Assembly: GCF_947581915.1 (NCBI RefSeq) | Contig: NZ_CANPWG010000014.1 | Coordinates: 7,769-71,768 of the forward strand | DNA from: Candidatus Palauibacter scopulicola | Lineage (GTDB): Bacteria; Gemmatimonadota; Gemmatimonadetes; Palauibacterales; Palauibacteraceae | Direction: 5' to 3' | Length of the DNA: 64,000 nucleotides | Shown: positions 16,900 through 60,209 of the stretch, piece by piece | Position numbering within the stretch: position 1 is the first letter of the stretch | How the letters are laid out: every line of letters begins with the position of its first letter | Notes under the pieces: generated by a model | Databases searched by the model: none | What the model saw: only the letters and a program-made list of their open reading frames with translations | What the model was told of the DNA's origin: nothing | Program-made: the position numbers and the translations under genes

Positions 16900-16908
16900 C
16901 CGGGCCTG

Positions 16909-19936: not shown

Positions 19937-19957
19937 CTCACGTTCCGCGTCAAGGGG

Positions 19958-19972: not shown

Positions 19973-19991
19973 GCCTCGTCTGCCGGCGGTA

Positions 19992-33554: not shown

Positions 33555-33605
33555 CTATCCCTTCACTCTCTGGTTTTCGGTTCTCCGGAAGTCCGACGGT
33601 CCGCG

Positions 33606-34973: not shown

Positions 34974-34993
34974 ATCGGTCGGCGTCCGGTCTG

Positions 34994-38024: not shown

Positions 38025-38219
38025 GACTGCCGCCTTCTCGCTGTGTGACCCGGACTGCGTTTCCGTGTCCTGCGCACCGCGCCGCTGCGTCCGCGTGCCG
38101 TCCGCCCGGAACCCTCCAAGATACCGGCTGTTGCACGACGGACCAACCCGCTGCGCCCCACCCGTACAGGGGGGATGGCGGAATTGCTCAGCCCTCGGGC
38201 CTCGGGTATCTTCCCGCGC

Positions 38220-38468
<249 letters not shown>

Positions 38469-38505
38469 ACCCGGCGTGAGCCGACCGCCGAGGCGATCCG
38501 CCGCG

Positions 38506-39663
38506 ATGCGGAACCGGTGTCCGCGCGGCCTGTCGGCGCCGCGCATCATGAGCCTCGGCCTCCTGCTGTTGCCGCACCCGCTCTCGTCGCGCGAGCCCGC
38601 GCCGCATGTTCAGACGCCGGACACCCCCGCCGCGCAGGAACACGCCCACGGAGCCTCGATGCCCGCCGGCGACCCGGGCCCGCCGCGCCTGCCTGCCGCG
38701 AGCCCGCTCATCGACGTGCGGGTGCCCGCGGGCGAGCGCGAGTTCGAGATCGTCGTCGGCCCCGTGTCGCTGCCGGCCGGCGGTCCGCACCTCCGGCCCC
38801 CGGTGCAACTCGCGGAGCTGCCCGTCGCCGGCTGGATGCACGGCTTCTCGTGGCGGATGAGGGACCGCGCGGGCAACCCGCTCCCCGACCGCCTTCTCCA
38901 TCACGTCAACGTCATCGACCCCGACAGCCGCGAACTCTTCTCCGCCGTCCCGCGCCGCATTCTCGCCGCGGGCCGCGAGACGAAGAACGAGTTGCTGCCG
39001 GGCGTGCTGGGCGTTCCCCTCGCGCCGGGCGGCCGGGTCCTCGTGAGCGCGATGTTCGCCCCGCTCCCCGACGCGTCGCACGAGGAAGCCTTCCTGCACA
39101 TCCGGCTTCCGTATACGCCGTTCGATGATCCGGGCCTCGTCGAGCCCGTGGACGTGTATCCGTTCTATCTCGACGTGATGGGCCCGGTCGGCGAGAAGGA
39201 GTTTCCGCTTCCGCCCGGGACTCACGGCAGGAGCTGGGAGGGCAGCCCCGCCGTGGACGGGCGGATCCTCGCCGTCGGTGGGCACCTGCACGACTACGGG
39301 GACTGGATTCGGCTCGAGGATGTCACGGCGGGCAGGGTGATCTGGGAGACGGGGCCCGAGGTGGACGGCGAAGGCCGCACCGTCGGCGTGCCCACGAGCC
39401 GGCTCTGGTGGCGGGGGGGCGTGCGGATCCGGAGAGACCACGTCTACCGCATCTCCGTCCAGTACTCGAACCCGCTGCGTCACCCGGCGCCGGACGGTGG
39501 GATGGGCGCCATCGGCGGCATCATCATCGCGGCGGCCGAGGACTGGCCGGAGTTCAGCCGCGAGCACCCGGACTACGTCCAGGATCTTCGCAACACCCTC
39601 GAGAAACCGAACGAGTCCGCCCACGCCCGCGGCCATGCATCCGGCTCGGAAGGCGGCGGCTAA
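38506..39663 (+). CDS. exported hypothetical protein (about 385 aa) with His-containing motifs
   Basis: The in-frame part of ORF 38260..39663 that does not overlap the ferredoxin. N-terminal hydrophobic segment ([14 protein letters not shown]). Motifs [11 protein letters not shown] and [10 protein letters not shown]. No family recognised. Confidence 0.5.
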
Positions 39664-40646: not shown

Positions 40647-42815
40647 CTACCAGGTGGCGAGTTCCACGATCGCTTCGGCGATGTCGTCGACCTGCGGCAG
40701 AGACGCGTTCTCGAGCGAGGGCGCGTAGCCGATGAAGGTGTCCGTCGAGGTGACCCGGCGGATCGGCGCGTCGAGCCACTCGAACAGTTCGTCGGCCAGA
40801 CGGGCCGAGATCTCGGCCCCGTAGCCCCAGGACTTGGCGTCCTCGTAGGCCACGAGCACACGGTTCGTCTTCATCACGGAGCGGCGGATGGCGTCCATGT
40901 CGACCGGGTTCAGCGACCGCAGGTCGATGAGGTCCGCGCCCACCGGCTCTCCGGCGCGGTCCAGCTTCGCGAGCGCCTTGCGCGTGCGCTCCACCATTGC
41001 GCCGTAGGTGACGATCGTGAGATCGTCGCCCTCCGTGACGAGGGCGGCCTTGCCGAAGGGGATCATGTACTCGGGACCCGGATAGACGCCCTTGTTGTAC
41101 GTCTGCCGGTACAGGTGCTTGTGCTCGAGGAAGAGCACCGGATCGTCGCACCGGATCGCGGTCCGCAGGAGCCCGTTCGCGTCCACCGCGTTCGAGGGGC
41201 AGATCACGTGCATGCCGGGCGTGTGCGTGAAGAGCGAGGCGCCCGTCTGCGAATGGTACATCGCGCCGCCCGAGATGTAGCCCCCGTAGGTGGTCCGAAT
41301 GACGAGCGGGCACTTCCAGCGTCCCGCGGAGCGCCAGCGGAAGGTCGCGACCTCGTTCCGGAACTGGTGGTAGGCTGGCCAGATGTAGTCGAAGAACTGG
41401 ACCTCGGCGACCGGCTTCAGCCCGCGCACGGCGAGACCCACGGCGCGTCCGACGATGTTCGCCTCGGCGAGGGGCGCGTTGTACACCCGCAGCGACCCGA
41501 ACTCGCGCTGCAGGCCGTACGTCACCTTGAAGACGCCGCCCTTGCCCTTGACCTCATCGAGGATCTCCTCGCGGCTCGCGTCCGCCACGTCCTGCCCGAA
41601 CACCACGATCTGCGGATCGCGCCGCATCTCGTCGCGGAGGCAGGCGTTGAGCAGGTCGACCATCGTCTTCGGATTCCCCTCGGGGTCGGGCCGTGCCTCC
41701 GTCTCGAAGGCGTTCGACGCGGGGTCGACGTCGGGCGAGTACACGTGCGTGTAGACGGTTGCCGGGTCCGGTTGCGGGCGGGCCATGGCGCGGTCCGCCG
41801 CGTCGGCGACTTCGGCCCTGATCTCCGCCTTGAGCGATTCGAGTGCGCCGGCCTCGATCACGCCTTCCCGAACGAGGTAGTCGGCGAAGGTGGCGAGCGG
41901 GTCGCGCTCGGATTCGACTTCCCGTTCGCTTTCGGACTTGTAGAGCCGCTCATCGTCGGACATCGAGTGGCTGTAGGGCCGGGTGACATGTGCGTGAACG
42001 AGCGCCGGACCGTGGCCGGACCGCACGTATCGCGCGGCGCGCCGCATGACGACGTAGCTCTCGAGCGGGTCCGTCCCGTCGACCTCCTCGATGTGGAGGT
42101 TCGGGTAGTTCCGCACGAGACTCGAGATGCTGCCCCCCGCCGTGTTGACCTCGACGGGCACGGAGATCGCGTAGCCGTTGTCCTCCACGAGGAAGAGGAT
42201 GGGAAGCTGCAGGTTGGAGGCGGTGTTGAGCGCCTCCCAGAACTCTCCTTCCGAGGTCGTGCCGTCCCCCGTGCACACGAGCACGATCTCATCCGCTTCC
42301 ACGTTGGGGGCGACCGCATCGAGTCCGTCGAGGCCGGCGGCCCGGGCGCGGGCGATGCCCTCCGCGCACCCCACTGCCTGGTTGAACTGCGTGCCCGTCG
42401 GGCTCGAAGGCGTGACGAGGTGCAGGTCAGGAGAACCGAAGTGCGCCGGCATCTGCCGTCCGCCGGTCGATGGATCCTCCTCCGCGCCGACCGCGCCGAG
42501 GAACATCTCGTACGGAGTCATGCCGAGTTCGAGACAGAGCGCGCGGTCGCGGTAGTAGGTGAAGAACCAGTCGTGGCCTGCTCTGAGGGCGCGTCCCGCC
42601 GCGACGAGGAGCGCTTCGTGCCCGGCGCCGGAGATCTGGAAGAAGATGCGGTTCTGCCGCTTCATCGCGATTTCGCGGTCGTCGATCGTCCTCGACGTGT
42701 ACATCGTGCGATACATCGCGAGGAGGTCCTCGGCCTGGAGATCCCGCCATTCGGGGCGGGCCAGGGCGCTGAGCGCGCGCTCCAGATCGTCGGTCTGGTC
42801 GATAGGGGTTGCCAT
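40647..42815 (-). CDS. fused alpha/beta E1 component of a TPP-dependent 2-oxoacid dehydrogenase (branched-chain/acetoin-type)
   Basis: N-terminal half resembles E1 alpha (TPP motif [36 protein letters not shown]); C-terminal half resembles E1 beta (transketolase pyrimidine and C-terminal domains). Start at MATPIDQ (42813-42815). Confidence 0.8.
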
Positions 42816-42959
42816 GTATGTCCAGCTGATCAGGAAGAGATTCGAGTGCCGGGTCTCCGGGCTCCGGAGACTCGCCACGACTCCGCCTTCGCCTTCCGCA
42901 ACCGCCCCGCCCGAACCGCGACGAAGACCCGGCGGGGAATCTAATCGTCCCTCCCCGGT

Positions 42960-46556: not shown

Positions 46557-47278
46557 GCGGGCCGCACCGGTCGCTCGTGATCGTGGCCGGCGGGCGTTCT
46601 CGCCGACTCGGCCGCGACAAGCCGCTGGTCGAGATCGGCGGCCGTACCGTGCTGTCACGGATCCTGGAAGCCACGTCGCAGTTCAAGGACACCGTCCTGG
46701 CGGTGCGCGAAGTTCCGCCCTTCCGGCGCGCGCTCGCCGGGGAAGGCTGGGAGTCCGTCGCCGAAACCGCGGGCCCGCCCGGCTCGGCCACGTTCCGCAG
46801 CCCGGAGGGCCGCGGTCTCCTTGTTGTGCCCGACCCGGTACCCGACCTGGGTCCCCTCGCCGGCTTCGCCTCGGGGCTGGACGCGGCACGGGGCGCGATC
46901 TGCGTTGTGCTGGCGGGCGACCTCCCCTTCGTCACGCCGGATCTCGTCGACCGCCTGAGCGGCGAACTCGCGAGCGATGCGGAGGCGGACGCCGTCGTGC
47001 CGAACGCGCGCGGCCGGGCTCAGCCCCTGTGCGCCGCCTATCGGCGGGAGGTCGGCCGGCTGGCCGCCCGGCTCGTGGCGCGCGCCGCCGCGTCCGGCGC
47101 CCCGTCCCCCTCGATGATGGGCTTCCTCGAGCGGTTGCGAGTGCGAACCGTCACGGCCGAACAGACCGCCGGCATCGGCGATCTCGAGACGATGGTGCGC
47201 GGCGTGGACAGCCGGGCCGACCTCGAGTGGGCCGTGCGGCGCGCCGCCCGATCCGACCAGGCCGGGACACGACGCTAG
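46553..47278 (+). CDS. mobA: molybdenum cofactor guanylyltransferase MobA
   Basis: LVIVAGGRSRRLGRDKPLVEIGG (MobA nucleotide-binding signature). The GTG start overlaps the arsC stop (GTGA). Confidence 0.75.
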   Translation: MSGPHRSLVIVAGGRSRRLGRDKPLVEIGGRTVLSRILEATSQFKDTVLAVREVPPFRRALAGEGWESVAETAGPPGSATFRSPEGRGLLVVPDPVPDLGPLAGFASGLDAARGAICVVLAGDLPFVTPDLVDRLSGELASDAEADAVVPNARGRAQPLCAAYRREVGRLAARLVARAAASGAPSPSMMGFLERLRVRTVTAEQTAGIGDLETMVRGVDSRADLEWAVRRAARSDQAGTRR

Positions 47279-48486
47279 AACCCGGCCGCCACCTCTCCGA
47301 GGGCGGCGACCGCGTCGTCCAGTTGCCGGTCGCTGAGGTAGGGGGCCGGGCCCAGCCGCAGCAGGTCGTCGCGGTAGTCCGTCGCCACGCCGCGAGCCGC
47401 GAGCGCCTCGTGGAAGTCGCGTGCCCGCGGCGTCCGGAGCGCGAGGAAGCCGCCCACCGCATCGGGCGGCGTCTCCCGGTCGCGGTCCACGAGTGCCGGG
47501 TCCGCGTCGAGCCCGTCGAACCCTCGCGTGAGACGGTCCATCTGGTGCCGGCTCACCGCACGCAGGAACTCCGGCGCGAGTCCCCGCTCCCGGAAGAAGT
47601 CGAACACCTCGGCGGCGCGGTAGTGGCTCGTCGGATCGTACGTGCTGCCCGCGAACCGTTCCGCTCCCGCTCCGTACGGCACCCGCGCGGCGTCCTCCGC
47701 CCCGTGCAGCGCCGAGAACTCGGCGAACCAACCCGTGACGGCGGGGCGCAGCCGGCAGTCCGGAGGTACGCGCAGGAAGCAGTTCCCCTCGCCGAGCTGG
47801 CAGTACTTGTACCCGCCCCCCACCACGAACGCGCCTTCGAGCCCCAGCTTCGAGAGATCGAAGGGGATCGCGTTCAGCGCGTGATAGGCGTCCACGAGCA
47901 GGTGGCACCCCACCTGTTCGCAGCGGTCCGCAACGCGGTCCAGCCCGCCGACGATACGGGCGTCACGGAAGAGGACGGCGGAAACGAGCACGCCCGCCGT
48001 CTCGTCGTCCGTGGCGAGACCGAGTCGCTCGGAGAGCGAGTCGATCGGGTCCACGGGCACGCGGACGATGGCCAGCCCCTCCTCCTCCAGGCGGTCGAGC
48101 TGGCGCCGGATGGAGTGGAACTCCCCCGCCGTCGTCACGATCCGGGGCCGCGCGCGCAGGTCGAGGGCGGAGAGAAAGCGCACCACGAGTTCGTGCGTGT
48201 TGGAGCCCAGCGCGACGTCCCCTTCGTCGGGGCGCCCCGGGCGTCCGAGGAGTTCGGCGTACCCGGCGCGGACCCGGTTCCCGCGGGCGAACGCCTCCTC
48301 CCACTTCCCGTCCACCAGGCGGGCGGCGTCTTCCCATGCCCGGAGCTGTCCCGCGAAGCCGCAGTCGGGCCACGCCTGGTGCGAATGGCCCGTGAGAAGC
48401 AGCCGCTCCGCGACCCGGAAGCGGGAGTAGTACGGGGCGAGCGCGTTCGGCTCCCGGTACAGGTCCTCCGGCGCGAAACGCGTCAC
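47275..48486 (-). CDS. kynU: kynureninase (PLP-dependent)
   Basis: NALAPYYSRF...LTGHSHQAWPD and VGGGYKYCQLGEGNCFLRV (PLP-lysine region) match kynureninase. Its stop shares CTAG with the mobA stop on the opposite strand. Confidence 0.8.
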   Translation of the reverse strand: MTRFAPEDLYREPNALAPYYSRFRVAERLLLTGHSHQAWPDCGFAGQLRAWEDAARLVDGKWEEAFARGNRVRAGYAELLGRPGRPDEGDVALGSNTHELVVRFLSALDLRARPRIVTTAGEFHSIRRQLDRLEEEGLAIVRVPVDPIDSLSERLGLATDDETAGVLVSAVLFRDARIVGGLDRVADRCEQVGCHLLVDAYHALNAIPFDLSKLGLEGAFVVGGGYKYCQLGEGNCFLRVPPDCRLRPAVTGWFAEFSALHGAEDAARVPYGAGAERFAGSTYDPTSHYRAAEVFDFFRERGLAPEFLRAVSRHQMDRLTRGFDGLDADPALVDRDRETPPDAVGGFLALRTPRARDFHEALAARGVATDYRDDLLRLGPAPYLSDRQLDDAVAALGEVAAGF

Positions 48487-48496: not shown

Positions 48497-49300
48497 TCAC
48501 AGGTCGGTGCGGATCGCCCACAGGTCGGGAAACACGGGGCGGTTCAGCGACTTCCTGAGGTAGGCGGCGCCCCCCGTCTGGCCGGTCCCGGGCCGCGCTC
48601 CGATCGTGCGCTCCACCATCTTCACATGCCGGTAGCGCCATTCCTGGAGGCCCTCGTCGAGATCCACGAACCGCTCGCACAGCTGGACGAGTTGCGGATC
48701 CTCCCGGTACAGCCGGATGAGCGCGTCCCGCACGCCCGCGGACGGCTCGGTCGGTGCCGTGACGTCCCGCTCCAGGTCCTCCGCCGGGATCGCGTACCCG
48801 TGCGCGTGGAGGAACCGGAGGAAGGCGGCCCACAGCGACGGTTCCGCGTAGCGGGCGTCGAGCCGCCGGCGCGCGTCGCTTCCTTCCGGATATCGATCGA
48901 AGACGTTCGTCCGCTTGTGGCCGAGGATGAATTCGAGCTCGCGGAACTGGTACGACTGCAGGCCGCTCGCCTCCTCCAGCCGTTGCCGAAAGGCGAGGAA
49001 CTCCAGCGGTCGCATCGTCTCCAGGATGTCCAGCTGGGCGACCTGCACCTTCAGGATCGTGAGGATGCGCTGCATCGTGTGCAGGAGCCGCGGCATGTCG
49101 TCGGCACCCATCCGGTCGCGCGCGAACTCGAGTTCGTGCAGAAGCTGCTTGAACCACAGCTCGTACACCTGGTGGATGATGATGAACAGCATCTCATCGT
49201 GCTCGGGGCTCCCGCCCTCGCCCGACTGCTCCTCCTGGAGAGACAGCAGCTCGTCGAGGTGCAGGTATCCGGCATAGGTCAGGTATTTTCCGTGCGCCAT
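48497..49300 (-). CDS. kynA: tryptophan 2,3-dioxygenase
   Basis: MAHGKYLTYAGYLHLDELLSLQ...HDEMLFIIIHQVYELWFKQ...WRYRHVKMVERTIG (bacterial TDO signature including the haem-ligand His region). Start ATG 49298-49300 preceded by GGAGGGAG. Confidence 0.85.
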   Translation of the reverse strand: MAHGKYLTYAGYLHLDELLSLQEEQSGEGGSPEHDEMLFIIIHQVYELWFKQLLHELEFARDRMGADDMPRLLHTMQRILTILKVQVAQLDILETMRPLEFLAFRQRLEEASGLQSYQFRELEFILGHKRTNVFDRYPEGSDARRRLDARYAEPSLWAAFLRFLHAHGYAIPAEDLERDVTAPTEPSAGVRDALIRLYREDPQLVQLCERFVDLDEGLQEWRYRHVKMVERTIGARPGTGQTGGAAYLRKSLNRPVFPDLWAIRTDL

Positions 49301-49344: not shown

Positions 49345-51666
49345 CTAGTACCCCCACTCGAATCTCGGCGTGTAGCCGTCCAGCGACGAATACTGCGGCG
49401 GCCACGGGATCGGCGCCCCCGAAGCATAGGCGGCGTGCCGGGTCCAGTATGGGTCCCAGAGGTGGGCACGGGCGAGACAGCAGAGGTCCGCGCGGCCCGC
49501 CGCGAGGATCGTGTTCACGTCCATGAACGAGGAGATGTTGCCCACGGCCATGGTCGCGATCCCCACTTCGTGCCGGATGCGATCCGAGAAGGGGGTCTGG
49601 TACTGGCGGCCGTAGACCGGCTCCTGCCAGGGGACGGTCTGTCCCGCCGAGACATCGATGATGTCCACGCCCGCCTCCTTCAGGCGGTGCGCGACCTCGA
49701 CGGCCCCGTCCGCGGTCATCCCGCCCTCCGCCCAGTCCACGGCGGAGATCCGGACCGAGATCGGCTTCTCGGGCGGCCACGCGGATCGCACCGCCGCGAG
49801 GACCTCGAGCGGGAAACGAAGCCGCCCGTCCACGTCTCCTCCGTACTCGTCCTCACGGAGGTTCGTGAGAGGGGAGATGAAGCTGGCCAGCAGGTAGCCG
49901 TGCGCGAAGTGGATCTCCAGCAGGTCGAACCCGGCCTCCTCCGACATTTTCGCTGCGCGGCGGAACTCGGCGGTCACCCGATCCATGTCCCGCCGCGTCA
50001 TCTCGCGCGGCACCGGGCTGTGTTCGAACCAGGGCACGGGGGAGGCGGCCATGATCGGCCAGCCGCCCTCATCGAGAGGTTCGTTGTCGCCCTCCCAGGA
50101 CAGGTGGGTGGACGCCTTCCGGCCCGCGTGGCCGAGCTGCAGCCCGATCGCCGCGTCCGAATGGCGGTGCACGAAGTCGACAATCCGCTTCCAGGCGCCC
50201 ACATGCACGGGAGCGTACATTCCCGTGCAGCCCAACGAGATGCGGCCCTCCCGGCTCACGTCCGTCATCTCCGACATCACGAGTCCGGCTCCCCCGATCG
50301 CCCGGCTGCCCAGATTCACGAGGTGCCAGTCGTCCGGCGTCCCGCCCTCCGCGGAGTACTGGCACATGGCCGAGACGACGACCCGGTTCTTCAGTTCAAG
50401 CTCCCGGAGCCGGAATGGGGCGAGGAGGGGGGGAGGGGCCGGGCCGCGCCCGACGCCCGCGGGGGGAGCGCCTGCGGTCGCCGCCGCTGTGTCGGCCGCC
50501 ACTGCGTCCGCCGCCGCCCGCTCCGCGAACCAGCGGTCGACGCGCGCGGTGAACTCCGGGTCGCGCAGGGCGAGGTTGGAGTGGGTGATGCGGAGGCTGC
50601 GCGTGATGAGGTTGAAGGCGAACTGCAGGGGTTCCGTCTCCAGGAAACGCTCGGTGCCCTCGAACCATTCGAGACTCGCCTGCGCCGCCCTCTGCGCGCT
50701 CTCGACCTCCGGCCGGCGGGCCGTCTCGTAGGCCTCCAGCGCGGGCGCCACATCGAGATCGTGGGCGAGCAGCGACTCGTGAAGGGAAATCGCGTCGATC
50801 ATCGCCAGCCGGGTGCCGGACCCGATGGAGAAGTGGGCCGAGTGCGCGGCGTCGCCGACGAGCACGATGTGGCCGTGGCGCCACGATCGGTTCCGGACGG
50901 TCGGGAAGCCCCGCCAGATCGAGCGGTTCGCGACGAGGCGATGGGAATCGAGTTCCTCACGAAACGTGTCCTCGAGGAAAGCGACGGTCTCCTCCTCGGA
51001 GGCGGCGTCCATCCCGGCGGCGCGCCACGTCGCCTCGGTCGCCTCGACGATGAAGGTGGAGACGGGATCGCCGCCGACGCTGTCGGGCCTGTACTGATAC
51101 GCGTGTACGCGCCACAGGCCGTGTTCGGTCTCCCGGAAATGGAAGGTGAAGGCGGGGAAGGGCTTCGTCGTGCCGAGCCACACGAACCGGTTCGGACGGA
51201 GATCGACGAGGGGGCCGAAGGCGGCGGCGTATCGGTCCCGCATGCGGCTGTTCACTCCATCGGCGGCGAGCACGAGATCGGCGCCGGCGTACGCTTCCTC
51301 CGACTCGACTTCCACGCCGCACTGAAGATCGACGCCGAGTTCGCGCGCCCGCGACTCCAGGATCTCGAGGAGGGCGGTGCGGGCGAGGCCGCTGAACCCG
51401 TGTCCGGTCGACGTGAGCCGGTGGCCCAGGTAGTGGATGTCGATGTCGTCCCAGTGGTGGAAGGACCGCACGATCGCCTCGTAACTGTCGCGGTCCGCGG
51501 CGGCGAGTTCCTCCAGCGTGGCGTCGGAGAACACGACGCCGAAGCCGTAGGTGTCGCCGGGGCGGTTGCGTTCGAGGACGATGACATCGTGCGCCGGATC
51601 CGCGCGCTTCATCAGGATCGCGAAGTACAGGCCGGCCGGCCCGCCTCCGACGCAGACGATCCTCAG
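49345..51666 (-). CDS. two-domain flavoenzyme: N-terminal FAD-dependent aromatic monooxygenase fused to C-terminal Old-Yellow-Enzyme-like FMN reductase. It resembles 2-aminobenzoyl-CoA monooxygenase/reductase (ACMR), the family databases often label bifunctional salicylyl-CoA 5-hydroxylase/oxidoreductase.
   Basis: N-domain: [27 protein letters not shown]-domain: MCQYSAEGG...[25 protein letters not shown] (OYE). About 773 aa. The first 278 codons of the track ORF 49345..52497 overlap the ACAD gene out of frame and are rejected. Confidence 0.8.
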
Positions 51667-52823
51667 AGGTCGCTCTCGCCGCGCGCGGCGTCGAGCAGAT
51701 GACGCGCGATGATGAGACGCTGGATCTCGGTGGCGCCCTCGTAGATGCGGAGCGCTCTCACGGAGCGGTAGAGCCGGTCGACCGGGTGGTCCGCCAGTAC
51801 GCCGCGTCCGCCGAGGATCTGCACGGCGTCGTCCACCACGCCCTGCGCGATCTCGGTCGCGAAGGACTTTGCCATGGCGGCTTCGAGGTCGGTGCGGTCC
51901 GCGCCGCCGTCGCGCTCCCAGGCCGCTCGATACACGAGGAGCCGGGCGGCGGTCAGGTCGGTGCCCATCCGTCCCACCTTCTCCTGCGTGATCTGGAAAT
52001 CGGCGAGCGCCCGTCCGAACTGCCGGCGCGAGAGGGCGTGGTGGAGCGCTTCGTGCAGCGCGCGGCCCGCCATTCCGCAGGCCGCGGCGCCGACGGTGGG
52101 GCGCAGGCGATCGAGCGTGGCGAGCCCGAGCTTGTACCCTTCGCCCTCGCCTCCGACGCGGGCCGCGGCCGGAAGCCGGCAGTCTTCGAGCGCGATCTCG
52201 CCCAGCGGGTGGGGGTCGGCCATCACGAGCGGCCGCACGAAGCGGAATCCCTTCGTGTCGGCGGGGAGGAGGAAGGCGGAGATCCCGGCAACCCCCTCGG
52301 CCGGGTCGGTGACCGCGAACAGGAGATAGAAGTCCGCGATCCCCGCGTTCGAGATGAAGGTCTTCACGCCGTTGAGGACGTAGTCGTTCCCGTCGCGGAC
52401 GGCGGTCGAGCGCATGGCGGCCACGTCGGACCCCGCCTCCGGCTCGCTCATCGCGAAGGCCGCCACGGCTCGCCCGCGGATGGCGCGGTCGAGCCACAGG
52501 CGGCGCTGCCTCTCGTCGCCGGCCAGCGCGATGGGGGTCGAGCCCAGCGCCTGGAGGGCGAACATCGCGTCCGCGAGCGGTGAGTAGAAAGCCAGCGTCT
52601 CCCGCGTCACGGAACAGGCCCGGAAGTCCTGTCGGCCGATCGCCTTCAGCCAGCCGCCTCGCCCCAGGGATGCGCAGATCTCCCGCGCGTAGCGGCGGGC
52701 GAGATCATCATCGTCCCGATGCGCGTGTTCCGCGAACTCCGACGCCGCGTAGCGCCCGAGCCCCTCCCCGAGTTCGAGGTGCCGCGGTTCGAGAAAGGCG
52801 CGGACGGGATGGAGGTCGATCAC
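51663..52823 (-). CDS. acyl-CoA dehydrogenase
   Basis: The ACAD fold is conserved throughout (…[20 protein letters not shown]…, C-terminal …[14 protein letters not shown]…). GTG start at 52821-52823 overlaps the enoyl-CoA hydratase stop (GTGA), giving 386 aa. Confidence 0.85.
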
Positions 52824-53620
52824 GAGAACACCGCGGCCCGCTTCTCGACGAAGGCGCGGAAGCCCTCGCGGAAGTTCGGGTCCTCCATGCAGGCGGCCTG
52901 CAGGCGGGCCTCTTCGGCGAGCGCGTCGACCAACGTCATGTGTGCCTCCCTCTCCAGAGCGCGCTTGGTGACGGACAGCGCGGAGGTGGGTCCCGCCGCC
53001 AGCCGCGCCGCCCACTCCGTCCCCGCGGCGAGCGCCTCGCCATCGGGGACGACCCGATTGTACAGTCCGATACGGAGCGCCTCCCGTGCGTCGAGGAAAT
53101 CGCCCGTCATCAGAAGCTCCGTCGCACGCCCGAGACCGATGATTCGCGGCAGGAGCCAAGCGATCCCCATGTCGGCGCCGGAGAGCCCGACCCGCGTGAA
53201 CAGGTAGGCGATCTTCGCGGATTCGGTCGCGATCCGCACGTCGCAGGCGGTCGCGATCACGGCCCCGGCCCCCGCCACCGTGCCGTTCAGGGCGCCGACG
53301 ATGGGCCTCTCGCACTCCTTCATGGCGACGATCAGGTCACACGTCATCCGCGTGAATTCGAGCAATTCCGGGGCGTCCATCTCGAGGAGCGGCCCGATGA
53401 TGTCGCGCACATCCCCGCCCGTGCAGAAGGCGGCCCCGGCCCCCGTGATCACGACCGCACGGATCCCCGGTTCGCGGTCGAGCGCGCGGAAGGTGTTTCG
53501 GAGTTCGTCGTAGACCTCGAAGGTCAGCGCATTGCGCCGTTCCGGACGGTTCAGCGTGATCGTCGCGACGGATGTCGCCGCGTCGACCTCGTACAGGAAT
53601 GAACTCGGATTCAGAGGCAC
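52820..53620 (-). CDS. enoyl-CoA hydratase/isomerase-family protein
   Basis: ITLNRPERRNAL...AFCTGGDV...GAGAVIATACDVRIA (crotonase fold). GTG start 53618-53620 preceded by GGAAGGAAG. Confidence 0.8.
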   Translation of the reverse strand: MPLNPSSFLYEVDAATSVATITLNRPERRNALTFEVYDELRNTFRALDREPGIRAVVITGAGAAFCTGGDVRDIIGPLLEMDAPELLEFTRMTCDLIVAMKECERPIVGALNGTVAGAGAVIATACDVRIATESAKIAYLFTRVGLSGADMGIAWLLPRIIGLGRATELLMTGDFLDAREALRIGLYNRVVPDGEALAAGTEWAARLAAGPTSALSVTKRALEREAHMTLVDALAEEARLQAACMEDPNFREGFRAFVEKRAAVFS

Positions 53621-53651: not shown

Positions 53652-54059
53652 TCACGGCAGGACGGCGGTCGCTTCGATCTCGACCTGCGCGCCGGCATCG
53701 ACGAGCCCGCTGACCTCGACGAGCGCCATGGCGGGATAGTGCCGGCCCAACCGGGCGCGCCACGCGGTCCCAAGCTCCGAACGGGCGTCCCGGTAGGCGG
53801 CGAGATCCGTCACGTAGATGGTCATCCGTCCGATGTGCGAGGGCTCTCCGCCCGCCGCCCGCACCACCGCCAGCACGCGGTCGAGCGCGAGCGCGAACTG
53901 CGCGGCGAAGTCCGAAGTCTCGACGTGTCCGTCCGATCCGGTCGCGGTCTGCCCGGCCACGAACAGTACGCGCCCGCCGGAGGGGGCGAGGAGGCCGTGA
54001 TTCCAGCCCCGCGGCTCGCCCAGCGCGGCCGGGTTCAGAACCTCGAACACATCGGTCAC
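53652..54059 (-). CDS. RidA (YjgF/TdcF/L-PSP) family enamine/imine deaminase
   Basis: 135 aa with the family pattern ...RVLFVAGQTA...GRMTIYVTDLAAY...PAMALVEVSGLVDAGAQVEIEA. GTG start overlaps the upstream SDR stop (GTGA). Confidence 0.75.
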   Translation of the reverse strand: MTDVFEVLNPAALGEPRGWNHGLLAPSGGRVLFVAGQTATGSDGHVETSDFAAQFALALDRVLAVVRAAGGEPSHIGRMTIYVTDLAAYRDARSELGTAWRARLGRHYPAMALVEVSGLVDAGAQVEIEATAVLP

Positions 54060-54838
54060 GGGAGAGCCGCCGTGGCGCCGCCGTCCAGCACGACGGTCTG
54101 ACCGTTGATGCTCCGCGCTTCGTCTTCGCACAGGAACGCAATCGATGCCGCGACCTCCCCGGGGGCGATGAGTCGCCGCTGCGGCGTCGTCGCAAGGATC
54201 GCCTCGACGGCGTCCGTCTCCGCCATCTCCGTTCGCTTCACGATGTTCTCGATCGTGGCGTCCGTCATCGGCGTGTCGACGTAGCCGGGACAGACCGCGT
54301 TCACCGTGACCCCGGCTCCCGCTACCTCGGCCGCGGCGGAGCGCGTGAGTCCGAGCAGGGCGTGTTTCGATGCGGCGTAGGCGGCGATGTAGCGCGCCCC
54401 GCGCAGCGCGGCGACGGAGGCCACGTTCACGATCCGGCCCCAGCCGCGTTCCAGCATGCCGGGCAGCACGCCCTGCATTGCGAGAAGCGCGCCGGTCGCG
54501 TTGATGCGCCACAGCCGCTCCCACTCCTCCGGGGCGAGCTTCACGACGGCCGCGGAACTGGCCACGCCGGCATTGTTCACGAGGATGTCCACGGCGCCGA
54601 GCCGCTGCTCGGCCTCGCGGCACAGGTCCTCCACGTTCGCCGGATCCGACACGTCGCACGTCATCGCCCACGCCTCGCCTCCACCGTCCCGCAGCTCGGC
54701 CGCGACAGCCTCGATCTCCGGCGTGCTCCGCGCCGCCAGCACCAGCCGGACGCCTCGATCCGCCAGCGTCCGTGCCGTCGCGGCCCCGATGCCGCGCCCC
54801 CCGCCCGTGACAAGCGCGCCACGTCCGGCAAGACTCAC
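54056..54838 (-). CDS. SDR-family 3-hydroxyacyl-CoA dehydrogenase / 3-oxoacyl reductase-like protein
   Basis: ALVTGGGRGIGAA, NNAG, catalytic S...YAASKHAL. The start overlaps the creatininase-family gene stop (ATGA). Confidence 0.8.
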   Translation of the reverse strand: MSLAGRGALVTGGGRGIGAATARTLADRGVRLVLAARSTPEIEAVAAELRDGGGEAWAMTCDVSDPANVEDLCREAEQRLGAVDILVNNAGVASSAAVVKLAPEEWERLWRINATGALLAMQGVLPGMLERGWGRIVNVASVAALRGARYIAAYAASKHALLGLTRSAAAEVAGAGVTVNAVCPGYVDTPMTDATIENIVKRTEMAETDAVEAILATTPQRRLIAPGEVAASIAFLCEDEARSINGQTVVLDGGATAALP

Positions 54839-55623
54839 TTCTTTTCCTCTCCCAGGGCTTCCCTCACTTCCTCTCCCAGGGCTTCCCTCACTGCCTCGGC
54901 GAGGATCTCGCCGAGCGTCTCAATGGTAGCACGTCCCTCTTCCGCCGTCGCCTGTGACGGATAGCCGAAATACGCCCGCGTCCCCCCCGCCTCCGCGAAA
55001 TCTCCCAGCCCGGCCCGGATCGCGGCGGAGAGGGAGACGGGATTGTCGTCCAGTCCGCGCATGATCTCCTCGCGCACGCGGCCGGGATCGCGGGCGAGGA
55101 GGATCGAGCCCTCGTACCGCCCGGCGTGGCAGGCCCCGCTCCGGAACTCCTCGGTGAGCCGGCTCCCCCACGGCCGGCGCGTCAGATCGGGAAACACGAC
55201 GCGAATGGAATCCCCCCCGCCGACCGCCGCCGCCGCGGCGTGAAGCGCCTCGAGGTTGGCGGGGTCGAAGTGGGCGTTCGCGATCGCCAGGGTGGCGATC
55301 CCGGCCCGGCGCAGGCTGGCGGCGATGTCGACGAGGAGGGCGGTGAACGTCGCGGCCCCGATATCGATCGTGCCGGGAAACCTCGCGGAGAACGCGGCGG
55401 GCGTGTACGGGAGGCCGTCGAGGAGCACGATCTCCAGACCCGCGGCCGAGAGTCGCCGCGCGCCGGCTTCCGCCATCGCTTCCGCGATGGTGACGTCGGT
55501 GTCGAGCGGCAGGTGGGGGCCGTGCGCTTCGGTCGCTCCCACGGGCAGGATCGCCACCGTTCGATCGAGGTCGAGGGCCCCGACTTCCTCCCAGGTGAGG
55601 TCCGAAAGCCTGTTCACAGTCAT
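54835..55623 (-). CDS. creatininase-family metal-dependent amidohydrolase (creatininase / MftE / ArfB-formamidase family)
   Basis: ILPVGATEAHGPHLPLDTD (binuclear-metal His/Asp ligands of the family) and ...AIANAHFDP.... First gene of the minus-strand catabolic operon. The C-terminus carries a tandem EVREALGE duplication. Confidence 0.7.
   Translation of the reverse strand: MTVNRLSDLTWEEVGALDLDRTVAILPVGATEAHGPHLPLDTDVTIAEAMAEAGARRLSAAGLEIVLLDGLPYTPAAFSARFPGTIDIGAATFTALLVDIAASLRRAGIATLAIANAHFDPANLEALHAAAAAVGGGDSIRVVFPDLTRRPWGSRLTEEFRSGACHAGRYEGSILLARDPGRVREEIMRGLDDNPVSLSAAIRAGLGDFAEAGGTRAYFGYPSQATAEEGRATIETLGEILAEAVREALGEEVREALGEEKK
54846..54893. repeat. 24-bp perfect tandem duplication (TCCTCTCCCAGGGCTTCCCTCACT x2) inside the 3' end of the creatininase-family gene, duplicating the octapeptide EVREALGE
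   Basis: Read directly. Confidence 0.8.
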
Positions 55624-55751
55624 GGAGTCTCGCTACGCCGTGCCGGGGAGGGGCGCAAGTCCGGGCGGCTCGTGTCGGTTGTAGACCCGCCGGGCCGCGC
55701 ATACCGTGCGAACCTCAGCCAGGACCGGACGACCCCCGCCGACGGAGCCCG

Positions 55752-57365
55752 ATGCGAGACGCCGCGCCGCAGCCGATCTTCGATCCGCCCGAGCGCTTCA
55801 ACATCGCCGAGTACTTCCTGGGCGACCGCATTCGGGAAGGGCGGGGCGGCCGCCGCGCGCTGCTCACGGACGGCGGCGAGGTCACCTACGCGGAAGTCGA
55901 CGCGCTGGCGAACCGCTACGGCCACCTCCTGCGCAGCGCGGGCGTGCGGCCGGAGGAGCGGGTTCTCATCGCGCTCCCGGACGGACCGGACTTCGTCGGC
56001 GCCCTCTTCGGCACGCTGCGGATCGGCGCCGTGGGCGTCATGCTGAACCCGTTTCTCCGGCGCGACGAGATTTCCTACTTCTTTCGGTACACGCGCGGCG
56101 CCGTCCTTCTCGTGGATTCGGGCCGCGCGCCCTTCTTCCGCGAGGGGATCTCCGCGGCGCCGGCATCCGCGGCGGCTCATGAAGCCGGCATCCCCTGGGA
56201 CGAGACGCCCTCCGCTCCGCGCGAGACCTTCGTCGTGGACGAGCCGGCCTTTGCGGAACGGCTTCGCGCCCAGCCCGCGACGCTGGAACCCTGCCCGACC
56301 CACCGGGACGATGCCGCCCTCTGGCTGTTCAGCGGGGGAACGACAGGACGCCCGAAGGGCGTCGTGCAGACGCACGCCTCGTTCGCGAACACGACGGAGA
56401 GCTACGGCAAGCGGGTGCTGGGCCTCACGGAAGACGACATCACCCTCTCCGTCCCCAAGCTGTTCTTCGGCTACGCCACAGGGTCCAACCTCTTCTTCCC
56501 CTTCGCGGTCGGTGCGACCGCAGCCCTCTTCCCGGAGCGCTGCACTCCGGACGTCCTGTTCGAGAGGATCGCACGATTCCGCCCCACGGTGCTCGTCAAC
56601 GTCCCCACCATGATCCGGCACATGGTGGCGCACCCGGACGCCGCCGCCAGCGATCTGTCGAGCCTTCGTCTCGCGACCTCGGCGGGTGAGGCGCTCCCGC
56701 CCGAACTTCACCGGCGCTGGCGCGACCGCTGGGGGGTGACGCTCCTGGACGGCCTGGGGACCGCGGAGATGTGGCACATCTTCCTCAGCAACCGTCCGGA
56801 CGAGGTACATCCGGGAACGCTGGGGCGTGCGGTCCCCGGTTTCGAGGTGCGGGTCTGCGACGACGAGGGCCGCGAGCTGCCGGACGGTGAAGTGGGTTGG
56901 CTGTGGGTGCGCGGAGGATCGCGCGCGCTGGGGTACTGGCAGCGGGCCGGGGCGACGGCGGAGGCCTTCCGGGGGGAATGGTACGTGTCGGGCGACATGA
57001 TCGTCCGCGATGAACGCGGGGTGTTCCGCTACTGCGGTCGTGGCGACGACATGCTCAAGGTCAAGGGAAAGTGGCTCTCCCCCGGGGAGGTGGAGGATTG
57101 TCTGCTGCAACACCCCGCCGTCGCGGAGGCGGCCGTCGTCGGCGTGCCGACTCCCGAGGGTCTTCTGGAGCCGGTCGCCTGGATCGTTCCGACGAAACCG
57201 GCTGCCGCAAGAGTCGGCGAGCTGGCGCCGGAACTCAGGGAATTCGTCGGTTCGCGGCTGTCCTCGTACAAGACGCCGGCCGCCGTTCACGTCGCGGCGG
57301 ATCTGCCCCGGACGCACCTCGGAAAGGTCGACCGCGCCGCACTCCGCGATCGATCCCGGACCTGA
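55752..57365 (+). CDS. aryl-carboxylate-CoA ligase of the benzoate/2-aminobenzoate-CoA ligase clade (AMP-binding superfamily)
   Basis: AMP-binding motif SGGTTGRPKGV. N-terminal FNIAEYFL typical of benzoate-CoA ligases. ...GDMIVRDERGVFRYCGRGDDMLKVKGKWLSP... (A8/A10). Divergent from the catabolic operon. Confidence 0.8.
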   Translation: MRDAAPQPIFDPPERFNIAEYFLGDRIREGRGGRRALLTDGGEVTYAEVDALANRYGHLLRSAGVRPEERVLIALPDGPDFVGALFGTLRIGAVGVMLNPFLRRDEISYFFRYTRGAVLLVDSGRAPFFREGISAAPASAAAHEAGIPWDETPSAPRETFVVDEPAFAERLRAQPATLEPCPTHRDDAALWLFSGGTTGRPKGVVQTHASFANTTESYGKRVLGLTEDDITLSVPKLFFGYATGSNLFFPFAVGATAALFPERCTPDVLFERIARFRPTVLVNVPTMIRHMVAHPDAAASDLSSLRLATSAGEALPPELHRRWRDRWGVTLLDGLGTAEMWHIFLSNRPDEVHPGTLGRAVPGFEVRVCDDEGRELPDGEVGWLWVRGGSRALGYWQRAGATAEAFRGEWYVSGDMIVRDERGVFRYCGRGDDMLKVKGKWLSPGEVEDCLLQHPAVAEAAVVGVPTPEGLLEPVAWIVPTKPAAARVGELAPELREFVGSRLSSYKTPAAVHVAADLPRTHLGKVDRAALRDRSRT

Positions 57366-57378: not shown

Positions 57379-58626
57379 CTAGTCCCCTTCGAGGAACGCC
57401 ATGACGAGTCCGCTCCGGATCTTGGGCTCGAACCAGGTCGACTTGGGAGGCATCATCCGGCGCTGCCGACAGACCGCGACAAACTGATCCATCGTCACGG
57501 CGGGCAGCGTGACGGCCAGATCCGCTCGACCCCCGTCCACCTCGGACGCGAGCCATGCGGCGTCCTTGTTGGCGCCGACGAAGGTGAGCCGCTCGTCGGC
57601 CGCATCCGGGATGCCCAGATCCGCGAAGAGCGTCCGCTGCACGATGTCGTGGTCGATGGAGGCGGCGGCGTCTGCCTCGTCGTAGACGCCGGCCCGCGGC
57701 GAGGCGCGCCGCCAACCTCCGTCCGCCGTGTACACGCCGATCACGTGCGTCGCGTCCGGCTGAAGGGGCTCGTCCCCGGCGGCCGAAACCTCGAAGGAGC
57801 GCTCCAGCGCCGCGTCGACGGCGGTCGCATCGCGTTCGCCGGGCAGGCGGACCAGCCGGTTGTACGGGGAAATGCCCATGCGATCCGCCGGAAAGAACAC
57901 CGCGAGGAAGGACTCGTACCCCAGCATCGCGGCGGCCGCGCTCCGGTGGTTGCCGTCGGCCACGTACGCCTCGGGCTCCGCGGCGAACAGTCGCTGGAGG
58001 CGCGCGATGGCCCCCGGTTCCGCGACGAGCCAGATGCGGTGGATCGTGTCTCCCGCCCCCCCGGTCTCGAAGTCGGGGCCGGTTCCGTCGGCGTGGCGCT
58101 CGAGCGCCGCCGCGAACGCCCCGGACGCGTCCGGCACCGCGTTGTTCACGGTCCCGATGATGGCGCCCGTCGCTTCGATGAGTCGGGCGCGCCCCCTCGC
58201 CTTGGGCGGGCGGACCCCTTCGTTCCTGATGATCGGCCCGGCCGGCGTGTCTTCCGTCCGGATCTCGTTCGTGCGGGCCAGCCCGCCCAGGCCGATCTGC
58301 CGCACACCCGGGCGCCGCGGGTCCACGATCTCGTAGAGGTACAGGATCCGCTTCGCCTCGCGGGTGAAGCGCGAGGCGCTCAGCCGCTGGAAGTTGCGGT
58401 GCGCGAGCTCCAGCGACGCCTCCGAATCGCCGGGGAGAATCGAGGTCGGGCTGTCGACGGCGCAGTGCGCCATCGTGACGCCGAGGACAGAGTCGGGCGC
58501 ACGCCGGATGGCCTCCCAGATCTCCGTATCCCCTTGGAATTCGTCGTAGTTCCGGGCCGAGACGTGGCGGGCGGCCTCGGAGTCGACGGGGACGAGCGCG
58601 CGCGGGACGGGACGTATCGTAAGCAT
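57379..58626 (-). CDS. DUF1015-family protein
   Basis: Start at MLTIRPV (58624-58626) within the longer ORF. Length 415 aa and the conserved blocks are typical of DUF1015. Confidence 0.55.
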   Translation of the reverse strand: MLTIRPVPRALVPVDSEAARHVSARNYDEFQGDTEIWEAIRRAPDSVLGVTMAHCAVDSPTSILPGDSEASLELAHRNFQRLSASRFTREAKRILYLYEIVDPRRPGVRQIGLGGLARTNEIRTEDTPAGPIIRNEGVRPPKARGRARLIEATGAIIGTVNNAVPDASGAFAAALERHADGTGPDFETGGAGDTIHRIWLVAEPGAIARLQRLFAAEPEAYVADGNHRSAAAAMLGYESFLAVFFPADRMGISPYNRLVRLPGERDATAVDAALERSFEVSAAGDEPLQPDATHVIGVYTADGGWRRASPRAGVYDEADAAASIDHDIVQRTLFADLGIPDAADERLTFVGANKDAAWLASEVDGGRADLAVTLPAVTMDQFVAVCRQRRMMPPKSTWFEPKIRSGLVMAFLEGD

Positions 58627-58856
58627 GACGTGATGACGTGGGGGGTTCGGGTTTGGCGTGAGCGTCGGTTCGGCGACAACCCTGCCGAGCCGGACCACGC
58701 GGCGCAACGTCGGGCCCGCGGCGCGCGCGCACGCGCGGGGTTGCCGGTTTCCCCTCCCGACGGTTTCATAAGGGGCGACGGAGCAGGTGCGCCGAGTTCG
58801 GAGGCATGCCGCGGGCGGTCCGCGGGCCATCGGCCGCCACGAAAGTTGGGGGTACG

Positions 58857-59417: not shown

Positions 59418-59432
59418 GAGGTACGGCTCCCC

Positions 59433-60209
59433 GTGGCGAAGAAGGCAAAGGCGCGGCCGCAGTCCGCGCGCGGCATCGAACTGACGGCCTTCCGGGTCGC
59501 GGAGACCGCCCTCGATATCGTGACGGGCGACCAGCGCCGCGAGTGGATGGACGAGACGCCCGATCGCTTCGCCTACCGCTGTCTGCCGCTCCTCATCGCG
59601 AATCAGGCCGGCTGGGATCTGCTCTGCCCCACGACGTTCTGGCTTCGCTGGGACGGCGAGGTCGCGCTGGACTCCATCCGTTTTCGCTGGGAGGACGAGC
59701 CGCACCCCGCCATCGCGAGCCACTTCGGGAGCGGAGTCTTGACGTTCACGCCCGGCTATCTGTTCCGCACCACGAAGGGACACAACCTCTGGGCGCGAGG
59801 CTGCCCCAACCTTCCGAAGGACGGCATCGTCCCGCTCGACGGGATCATCGAGACGGACTGGGCCCCGTTCTCGTTCACGATGAACTGGAAGGTCACCCGG
59901 CCCAAGCACTGGATCCGCTTCGACGAGGGCGAGCCGATCTGCCGGATCGTCCCCATTCCGCGGCACTATCTCGAGAACGTGCGCCCCCGCACGCGGGAGC
60001 TGTGGGACGACAAGCTCGTCGCGAACCAGTACACGGCGTGGAACGAGTCCCGGGCCCAGTTCATCGACGACCTCCACGCCCAGGACGAGGAAGCGGTGCA
60101 ACAGGGCTGGCAGCGGACCTATATTCGCGGCCAGAACATGCGCGGCACGCGGATGCAGGACCACCAGACGAAACTCCGGCTTCGCGATTTCCTGTCCTTG
60201 AGGAAATAG
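59433..60209 (+). CDS. hypothetical protein (258 aa)
   Basis: GTG start preceded by AGGAGG. High GC3. No family recognised. Confidence 0.5.

Follow-up and report, generated by a model that had tools for sequence, protein, structure and literature searches.

The question raised by this locus is how a formyl group is removed during tryptophan breakdown when none of the known kynurenine formamidases is encoded nearby. The DNA analysed here (the window) is a stretch of 64,000 nucleotides on contig NZ_CANPWG010000014.1 of Candidatus Palauibacter scopulicola (Gemmatimonadota). It carries an operon with genes for tryptophan 2,3-dioxygenase (KynA) and a kynureninase-like enzyme (KynU-like), headed by a gene for a creatininase-family protein (CRE) that the original prediction put forward as a non-canonical kynurenine formamidase (KynB). 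CRE represents a large creatininase subfamily, so far uncharacterised, whose members are co-inherited with aryl-CoA ligases of a single lineage (LIG). The pair forms part of a tryptophan-to-anthraniloyl-CoA operon in several phyla, Gemmatimonadota among them, and the partner that CRE keeps throughout is LIG, not KynA or KynU. The role that we place first, with a confidence a little below even, is that of an aryl-formamidase or N-acyl-anthranilate amidohydrolase feeding LIG, which would act on N-formylkynurenine or N-formylanthranilate.

CRE is the first of eight genes on the minus strand, in the order CRE-SDR-RidA-ECH-ACAD-ACMR-KynA-KynU-like, with GTGA stop/start overlaps at CRE/SDR, SDR/RidA and ECH/ACAD and gaps of 10-44 bp elsewhere in the operon. 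The products between CRE and KynA are a short-chain dehydrogenase (SDR), a RidA-family deaminase, an enoyl-CoA hydratase (ECH), an acyl-CoA dehydrogenase (ACAD) and a bifunctional monooxygenase/reductase (ACMR), and these five genes together with the divergent LIG make up a 2-aminobenzoyl-CoA (abm-type) pathway, which did not figure in the original prediction. Judged by its gene content, the locus is predicted to encode the conversion of tryptophan via N-formylkynurenine and anthranilate to 2-aminobenzoyl-CoA, followed by the aerobic abm-type CoA pathway known from Azoarcus evansii and Arthrobacter sp. Rue61a (PMC4539516, PMC3534580). Both kynurenine-pathway enzymes reported earlier are present. 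KynA is clear, with a TIGR03036 score of 274 bits that lies under that model's cutoff of 390.7, and KynU is real but divergent: KYNU_C (31.9 bits) is the sole Pfam match of the KynU-like protein, no kynureninase model is among its NCBIfam matches, phmmer retrieves no PDB kynureninase, and pairwise comparison with Deinococcus KynU gives 27% identity (E 4e-10). The KynU-like gene lies no more than 1.3 kb downstream of KynA in 34 of 46 KynA-centred loci. Every step from tryptophan to the dearomatised CoA ester other than deformylation has a candidate gene, in agreement with the earlier claim that this step alone is missing, and CRE is the sole unassigned hydrolase, so the logic of filling the gap with CRE is sound.

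What kind of protein CRE is can be stated with some precision. The open reading frame (ORF) of 262 codons is genuine, with an ATG start and a coding signature in its third-position GC content (GC3 0.85, in a window of 70% GC), and the Creatininase profile PF02633 covers it in full (E 7.6e-51, 173 bits against a cutoff of 31.3, profile positions 2-238 of 238), which bears out the family assignment made originally. Among curated NCBIfam models the highest score belongs to the mycofactocin peptidase MftE (TIGR03964, 107.7 bits against a cutoff of 172), followed by the creatininase equivalog TIGR04448 (80.5 against 235) and the IolN model NF041098 (34.5 against 245, over residues 9-118 only). In a HMMER alignment with Pseudomonas putida creatininase, E32, H34, D43, H118 and E171 of CRE fall on E34, H36, D45, H120 and E183, the binuclear metal ligands, H166 falls on H178, the catalytic histidine, and D120 on E122, the catalytic acid position. 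The six residues E32, H34, D43, H118, H166 and E171 are all invariant in 27 CRE orthologs (59-90% identity), whose alignment has 68 invariant columns, and in 28 broader relatives D43 and H166 are invariant and the other four sites at least 90% conserved. Creatininase Trp154 and Trp174, which belong to the flap that gates creatinine, are replaced by Pro145 and Gly163, both invariant in the subfamily, and it is mutants of these two tryptophans that fill the PDB match list for CRE. As the metal and catalytic sites are kept and the gating pair is replaced, CRE is predicted from sequence and model to be an active metal hydrolase of the creatininase fold with a substrate other than creatinine. The identities creatininase, MftE and IolN were rejected for CRE, since its scores lie under the curated cutoffs and the creatinine-binding tryptophans are missing.

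The AlphaFold (AF2) model of CRE (pLDDT 92.5, pTM 0.90) matches only creatininase-family chains in the PDB at E ≤ 1e-3 by Foldseek, with TM 0.67-0.75 and 21-27% identity. The P. putida creatinine amidohydrolase (PDB 1J2T/3A6J) shares the fold at TM 0.73 and 25% identity, with the six catalytic and metal residues conserved, but differs at the two tryptophans, in having Glu122 where CRE has Asp120, and in belonging to creatine metabolism rather than aromatic catabolism. An arginine-rich loop of CRE at residues 145-160 might bind a carboxylate or the CoA phosphates. A direct duplication, (V)REALGEE twice over, occupies part of the last 20 residues of CRE (window 54838-54900, minus strand), a tail that the model predicts with low confidence, and is absent from the closest homologs. 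The nearest relatives are 'creatininase family proteins' of Candidatus Palauibacter (84-92% identity), beyond which the relatives among 1.84 billion cluster representatives form a continuum from 60% down to about 33% identity (129 representatives at E ≤ 1e-30, 6599 at E ≤ 1e-3), with the motifs EAHGPHLP, NxH(F/L)(D/E)P and GACHAGxYE(G/T)S retained throughout.

Known formamidases were sought by profile and by sequence. No cyclase-family protein (PF04199) and no alpha/beta hydrolase turned up when about 50 ORFs of the window with GC3 support were scanned against Pfam, and the only two other hydrolases are an Amidohydro_1 protein some 45 kb away (8020-9420) and a CN_hydrolase protein beside NAD synthase (25855-26838). 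Five formamidase queries, namely KynB sequences from PDB 4COB, 4COG and 4CZ1 (tblastn and HMM) and the two alpha/beta hydrolases that adjoin kynA in Deinococcus and Ruegeria (tblastn), gave no tblastn match at E ≤ 1e-3 in the window and 169 related loci (1.93 Mb in total); the same search detected, as a positive control, the remnant of a KynB gene beside kynA on a Paraburkholderia plasmid. With the KynB HMM equally empty, the reported lack of a recognisable KynB in the 64 kb holds, and it extends to the 169 loci. CRE itself falls outside the cyclase-type KynB family (PF04199, motif HxGxHxDxPxH), having a different fold and yielding sub-significant fragments only. These fragments, in which KynB residues of about 108-160 align to CRE genes (tblastn E 0.016-1; HMM E 0.0025-1), were rejected as homology because they are sub-significant and non-independent and the folds differ. 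If CRE is a formamidase it would be a functional analogue of KynB, not a homologue: the cyclase type (PDB 4COB, 4COG, 4CO9) catalyses the reaction proposed here and is likewise a metal-dependent hydrolase found in kyn clusters, but it is unrelated to CRE in fold and sequence.

The firmest result concerns the company that CRE keeps. A scan at one genome per species gave at least 600 matches to CRE, to which thousands of metagenomic proteins can be added, and context was taken from the best 80 loci (53-92% identity), most of them contigs of metagenome-assembled genomes (MAGs) with flanks of up to 10 kb, from five phyla or candidate phyla: Gemmatimonadota, Eisenbacteria, Acidobacteriota (including Thermoanaerobaculia), Planctomycetota and Myxococcota. 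CRE (53-92% identical to that of the window) adjoins LIG in all 74 loci that have a ligase of the window lineage (55-93% identical) and enough sequence, with a median gap of 79 bp that is at most 300 bp in 67 of the 74, and among the 69 genome loci whose upstream sequence is long enough, 57 have the ligase no more than 400 bp upstream of CRE. Across the 74 loci the identities of LIG and CRE are correlated at r 0.93, a value that partly reflects shared descent, and clusters whose ligase is at most 35% identical to LIG all lack CRE.

Around this pair the wider operon is widely conserved. In most loci tblastn with the window operon proteins recovers the canonical order, with LIG on the opposite strand ahead of CRE-SDR-RidA-ECH-ACAD-ACMR-KynA-KynU. 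Within 10 kb of CRE, in the 32 loci with full flanks (Table 1), KynA or KynU is found in 26, and two further loci have divergent copies. CRE thus belongs to a combined kyn and abm cluster whose co-location is conserved across lineages and in several gene orders, and two Planctomycetota loci (L057, L058) carry a canonical-type kynureninase in place of the divergent KynU-like protein. Since gene orders are rearranged and two types of kynureninase occur, membership of CRE in the pathway is more than a frozen operon. In clusters that are split, CRE stays with KynA, KynU and LIG in three loci (L013, L035, L047) and with the KynU-like gene and LIG, with no KynA in range, in two more (L018, L021). 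A clean segregation of CRE with the upper, kynurenine module was considered and rejected, as CRE goes with the upper genes in five loci and with the lower genes in at least four. A search of the plasmid collection returned no CRE ortholog, all matches being below 36% identity.

Clusters that manage without CRE are equally informative. ACMR homologs about 52% identical to that of the window occur on 559 plasmids or chromids. The abm clusters of Burkholderia, Phyllobacterium and Ralstonia read ACMR-SDR-MarR-ECH-ACAD-(thioesterase)-RidA-LIG and that of Arthrobacter pAL1 combines LIG and ACMR with RidA, a FAH-family protein, a cupin and a thioesterase; none of those examined contains a creatininase or kyn gene. 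RidA was found in each of the six abm-type clusters without CRE that were inspected. The characterised clusters of Azoarcus evansii and Arthrobacter sp. Rue61a (pAL1 and chromosome) share with the window the ligase, monooxygenase/reductase, crotonase, acyl-CoA dehydrogenase, SDR and RidA, but have no creatininase gene and no kynA or kynU, and their ligase is only 33-35% identical to LIG. Arthrobacter grows on anthranilate through the abm CoA route (PMC3534580). As the abm core is present without CRE in Burkholderia, Ralstonia, Phyllobacterium and Arthrobacter Rue61a, CRE is not needed for the core CoA pathway. Elsewhere a hydrolase of another fold stands beside kynA: in Ruegeria pomeroyi the abm cluster is flanked by a tryptophan dioxygenase (TDO) and alpha/beta-hydrolase pair, and Deinococcus has a kynU-kynA-alpha/beta-hydrolase operon. 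These alpha/beta hydrolases, of a serine-hydrolase fold and with a formamidase activity inferred from context, would fill the same slot beside kynA that CRE is proposed to fill, and tblastn finds them neither in the window nor in any CRE locus; the pattern fits non-orthologous displacement. The two proteins, which carry generic annotations directly beside kynA on the Ruegeria pomeroyi megaplasmid (L086:10262-11879) and in Deinococcus radiodurans (L092:3697-6595), are 35% identical to each other and are good candidates for a bacterial alpha/beta-type kynurenine formamidase family.

From this evidence we infer the substrate of CRE and the step at which it acts as follows. KynA would leave a formyl group on the aromatic amine and CRE would remove it, either from N-formylkynurenine before the KynU-like enzyme or from N-formylanthranilate after it (an EC 3.5.1.9-type reaction); the free anthranilate would then be activated by LIG and enter the 2-aminobenzoyl-CoA pathway. 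If CRE makes the acid that LIG activates, the only amide in the operon is the KynA formamide, which points to an aryl-formamidase, and a hydrolase whose product is the substrate of the ligase is the simplest explanation of the conserved CRE-LIG pair. The closest chemical precedent is ArfB, a FAPy-ribonucleotide deformylase that hydrolyses a formamide on an aromatic (pyrimidine) amine. ArfB (Methanocaldococcus jannaschii MJ0116), compared with CRE by description only, belongs to the same Pfam family but serves archaeal riboflavin/F420 biosynthesis with a nucleotide substrate, whereas CRE lies in a context of aromatic catabolism. Kynureninase can also cleave N-formylkynurenine to N-formylanthranilate (KEGG tryptophan map). 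Because (KynA, KynU) and (CRE, LIG) are separable pairs and the kynureninase is divergent, this known cleavage makes N-formylanthranilate at least as likely a substrate as N-formylkynurenine. The antimycin literature describes TDO-kynureninase gene sets without a dedicated formamidase and asks which species the ligase activates (PMC3869250). Our literature search found no paper relevantly linking the creatininase family to kynurenine formamidase, anthranilate catabolism, deformylases or CoA ligases. What speaks most strongly for the KynB idea is the comparison with other clusters: the CoA core has no need of CRE, and a hydrolase of another fold accompanies kynA elsewhere.

Several observations weigh against an aryl-formamidase. 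Firstly, CRE is linked more tightly to LIG (28/32) and to SDR and RidA (30/32) than to KynA (23/32) or KynU (25/32), and in four split clusters it stays with SDR-RidA-ECH-ACAD (L069, L079, L026, L078), the first two of which keep those genes only. Secondly, in a reciprocal scan centred on KynA (80 metagenome loci, 56-73% identity) CRE occurs in only four of the 11 loci that have at least 7 kb of upstream sequence, and isolated KynA-KynU-like pairs are common, with transporters, methyltransferases and other unrelated genes as neighbours; comparison across genomes does not bind CRE to KynA and KynU in particular. Thirdly, several Myxococcota have CRE-LIG pairs with no other pathway genes in range, among them the cultured myxobacterium Haliangium ochraceum (DSM 14365), whose ortholog is 60% identical to CRE. 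Fourthly, two acidobacterial loci (L040, L067) carry alpha/beta-hydrolase ORFs right after KynU in addition to CRE. In both (L040:14550-16172, L067:4535-6037) adjacent ORFs encode the N- and C-terminal halves of one alpha/beta hydrolase (Abhydrolase_1 at 5-110 and 113-239, and a TAP-like C-terminal domain), conserved between the two loci at 47-55% identity, which may represent another formamidase or else a peptidase, split or secreted. A strictly complementary distribution of CRE and other hydrolases was rejected, being broken by L040, L067 and L097.

The remaining points of this kind come from sister clades, for which six loci were looked up after profiling distant relatives of CRE and four of the six were checked by tblastn. 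In these four, CRE is 37-46% and the adjacent ligase 44-47% identical to the window proteins, and tblastn with the window operon proteins finds no other pathway gene. An AMP-binding gene lies within about 4 kb upstream on the same strand in all six, as a fragment only in one, and no tryptophan dioxygenase or kynureninase domain is among the Pfam labels of any of the six. The arrangements are LIG-CRE-4HBT thioesterase (L182, L183), OYE-LIG-CRE-GNAT (L181) and aconitase-like-LIG-x-x-DinB-CRE (L180, L184), of which the first resembles systems for CoA-dependent transformations and would, by analogy, put CRE after the ligase. Just downstream of the sister LIG-CRE(-thioesterase) module there is also an N6_N4 DNA-methyltransferase-family gene (PF01555; L180:9719-10855, L182:9241-10362, L183:9316-10467, L184:8827-9942), a neighbour that may reflect only the relatedness of the genomes. 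The claim that CRE is an analogue of KynB is a subset of the aryl-formamidase assignment and so is only partly supported: the gap logic and the lack of kyn genes in abm clusters without CRE speak for it, and the constancy of LIG as partner, the kyn pairs without CRE and the extra hydrolase of L040 and L067 speak against it.

Table 1. Genes of the operon and the divergent ligase gene in the window, with the number of loci, out of 32 with full flanks, in which each lies within 10 kb of CRE
Feature	Position	Strand	Basis	Loci (of 32)
CRE, creatininase-family binuclear-metal amidohydrolase	54835..55623	-	262 aa, first operon gene; PF02633, catalytic residues and model	
SDR, short-chain dehydrogenase, 3-hydroxyacyl/3-hydroxybutyrate dehydrogenase-like	54056..54838	-	adh_short E 9e-62; start overlaps CRE stop	30
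RidA-family enamine/imine deaminase	53652..54059	-	PF01042 E 1.5e-17	30
ECH, enoyl-CoA hydratase/crotonase family	52820..53620	-	NF006107 359.8 bits, above cutoff; ECH_1 E 2e-53	29
ACAD, acyl-CoA dehydrogenase	51663..52823	-	Acyl-CoA_dh_1/M/N domains; GTGA overlap with ECH stop	28
ACMR, bifunctional FAD monooxygenase/OYE reductase, 2-aminobenzoyl-CoA monooxygenase/reductase-like	49345..51666	-	NF006101 1090 bits against cutoff 1078; FAD_binding_3 and Oxidored_FMN	26
KynA, tryptophan 2,3-dioxygenase	48497..49300	-	PF03301 E 9.5e-62; 36% identical to Deinococcus KynA	23
KynU-like, divergent kynureninase-like PLP enzyme, last operon gene	47275..48486	-	KYNU_C 31.9 bits	25
LIG, aryl-CoA ligase, benzoate-CoA ligase family, presumed anthranilate-CoA ligase	55752..57365	+	TIGR02262 483 bits, above cutoff; AMP-binding E 2e-80	28
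CRE-LIG divergent intergenic region, 128 bp, presumed divergent promoters	55624..55751	.	sequence between the two genes	

The alternative that survives best, possible but on balance unlikely, is that CRE acts after LIG on a CoA thioester, by deaminating an enamine (2-amino-5-oxocyclohex-1-ene-1-carbonyl-CoA), by deformylating N-formylanthraniloyl-CoA or by an IolN-like ring opening of a diketo-CoA. LIG, SDR and RidA are the closest and most constant neighbours of CRE; it remains with SDR-RidA-ECH-ACAD alone in L069 and L079, and L113, which has ECH-ACAD-ACMR-KynA-KynU, lacks CRE together with SDR, RidA and LIG, so that CRE segregates with those three genes. The sister operons ligase-CRE-4HBT thioesterase and OYE-ligase-CRE-GNAT fit as well and resemble the design of 4-chlorobenzoate dehalogenation, in which a ligase, an enzyme that transforms the CoA ester and a thioesterase act together. 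LIG is 33-35% identical to its counterparts in abm clusters without CRE, against about 52% for ACMR, which hints at a different substrate or product of the ligase. The creatininase family also includes a C-C hydrolase, IolN, which acts on a diketo-inositol by hydrolytic ring opening; it is a weak match to CRE, its model reaching residues 9-118 only at 34.5 against a cutoff of 245. We know of no creatininase-family enzyme that acts on a CoA ester, RidA and the crotonase are already plausible for deamination and ring opening, and the SDR-RidA-ECH-ACAD-ACMR core works without CRE in Proteobacteria and Arthrobacter (PMC3534580). A narrower form of this proposal, which we think rather improbable, makes CRE a CoA-thioester-dependent amidohydrolase on the product of LIG that deformylates N-formylanthraniloyl-CoA or cleaves the enamine C-N bond of the dearomatised ring; in the former case the LIG lineage would be specialised for the formylated acid. 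If true, the reaction type and substrate class would be unprecedented for the fold, and both the co-inheritance of CRE with LIG in many phyla and the ligase-CRE-thioesterase modules would be explained.

There is a small chance that CRE is a broader amidohydrolase of N-acyl-anthranilates or aryl amides (N-acetyl- or N-acylanthranilate from quinolone or quinaldine breakdown, or anthranilamide) that would provide LIG with its acid without any need of tryptophan dioxygenase, with the kynurenine link secondary. CRE-LIG pairs do exist without kyn genes in range, although KynA-KynU may lie elsewhere in those genomes, isolated pairs being common. In the quinaldine route of Arthrobacter Rue61a the immediate precursor of anthranilate is an N-acyl-anthranilate, from which an amidase releases it. 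The quinaldine-derived anthranilate is degraded via the same CoA-thioester pathway (PMC3534580), which counts in favour, as do the NicX-like and Amidohydro_2 genes of locus L098, which suggest amide or formamide products from another heteroaromatic compound. The presence of KynA or KynU in 26 of 32 fully flanked loci, with divergent copies in two more, speaks against so wide a role, and no quinolone-degradation genes were seen near CRE. The L098 arrangement merits description for itself: on a 3.8-Mb MAG contig (L098:10773-13594) CRE is followed by a NicX-like gene of the 2,5-dihydroxypyridine dioxygenase family, an ORF with no recognised family and an Amidohydro_2 gene, then by MerR, SDR, RidA and ECH. 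Ring cleavage of the NicX type yields N-formyl amides, and the adjacency hints, by analogy and in a single case, at a deformylase role. As independent support for a deformylase it was rejected, resting as it does on one locus.

It is very unlikely that CRE is a regulatory deacylase that removes an N-epsilon-acyl group from the catalytic lysine of LIG and so reactivates it, as Pat/deacetylase systems do for benzoate-CoA ligases. LIG and CRE are strictly paired as lineages, aryl-CoA ligases of the family to which LIG belongs are regulated by lysine acetylation in Rhodopseudomonas palustris, and the nearest characterised relative of CRE by NCBIfam score, MftE, has a peptide substrate. A GNAT gene directly follows CRE in L181 and lies near the ligase in L098, and a Pat-like acetyltransferase gene is found about 5.5 kb upstream of the ligase in L182, but such adjacency is sporadic (two or three of more than 90 loci), and Pfam shows no GNAT in the operon region of the window at 47-58 kb, the search for GNAT across all loci not having been a specific one. 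The creatininase active site is a small buried pocket, and we know of no protein lysine deacylase that has this fold.

The idea that CRE is an ordinary creatininase, MftE or ArfB orthologue lying beside the pathway by chance has Pfam family membership in its favour and is scarcely credible, given scores of 80.5 against 235 for creatininase and 107.7 against 172 for MftE, the replacement of Trp154 and Trp174, a place in the operon, with stop and start codons overlapping, that is conserved in five phyla or candidate phyla, and the absence from the Pfam matches of the window ORFs of creatinase/sarcosine oxidase, riboflavin-biosynthesis and mycofactocin-type (MftC radical SAM) domains, the only radical SAM match being lipoyl synthase; MftE, the mycofactocin peptidyl-dipeptidase, shares the fold family with CRE. 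This idea is part of the modest remainder that we leave for explanations other than those set out above.

Were CRE an aryl-formamidase, it would be the third unrelated fold for kynurenine or aryl formamidase, after the cyclase type and the alpha/beta hydrolases, and would close a hole in the tryptophan-catabolism pathway of the phyla in which the subfamily is abundant (Gemmatimonadota, Acidobacteriota, Eisenbacteria, Planctomycetota and Myxococcota); a known reaction would thereby gain a new isofunctional fold. Action on a CoA ester would instead mean a new substrate class for the creatininase fold. Whichever step belongs to CRE, in these phyla the kynurenine route leads into the aerobic 2-aminobenzoyl-CoA pathway, which has been little studied, and Haliangium ochraceum, as a cultured carrier, makes the question testable. 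The payoff would be better annotation of a widespread pathway in phyla that have received little study and a lead for enzymology, with no new biological principle.

Some features of the pathway genes deserve mention in their own right. ACMR, about 52% identical to the enzymes of Arthrobacter Rue61a pAL1 and of proteobacteria, has an uncertain start: no ATG, GTG or TTG lies near its conserved N-terminus, the sole candidate being a CTG at 51666 (window 51660-51666, minus strand) that overlaps the TGA stop of ACAD (cTGa), and in the relative L003 the two gene calls share 4 nt here, which points to a non-canonical start or to reinitiation. Several loci have an additional OYE-type flavoprotein (Oxidored_FMN, about 480-490 aa) encoded by a gene of its own (L026:13248-14699, L181:4980-6458 and L063, with partial matches in L033, L051, L057, L078 and L080); in L026 it lies between ACAD and ACMR, where partial ACMR-like matches in several other loci may be the same gene, and in L181 it is directly upstream of the sister-clade LIG-CRE pair. 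On the far side of LIG, a convergent DUF1015 gene (57379-58830, minus strand) and a nearby DUF6065 gene (59418-60209, plus strand) keep their place beside the cluster in Palauibacter and its near relatives (L003-L012, L100) but not in loci further removed, DUF1015 being found in 4 of 32.

Elsewhere in the window, a single protein of 743-770 aa (40647-42959, minus strand) fuses the E1 alpha (E1_dh) and E1 beta (Transket_pyr and Transketolase_C) parts of a 2-oxoacid dehydrogenase, near a conventional split E1/E2/E3 set with lipoyl synthase at 32142-38609. A phosphate block at 9363-20149, comprising Ppx/GppA, polyphosphate kinase, PhoU, a PstB-like ABC ATPase, a permease, a phosphate-binding PBP protein and a histidine kinase/response regulator, is ordinary in content and bears no relation to CRE.

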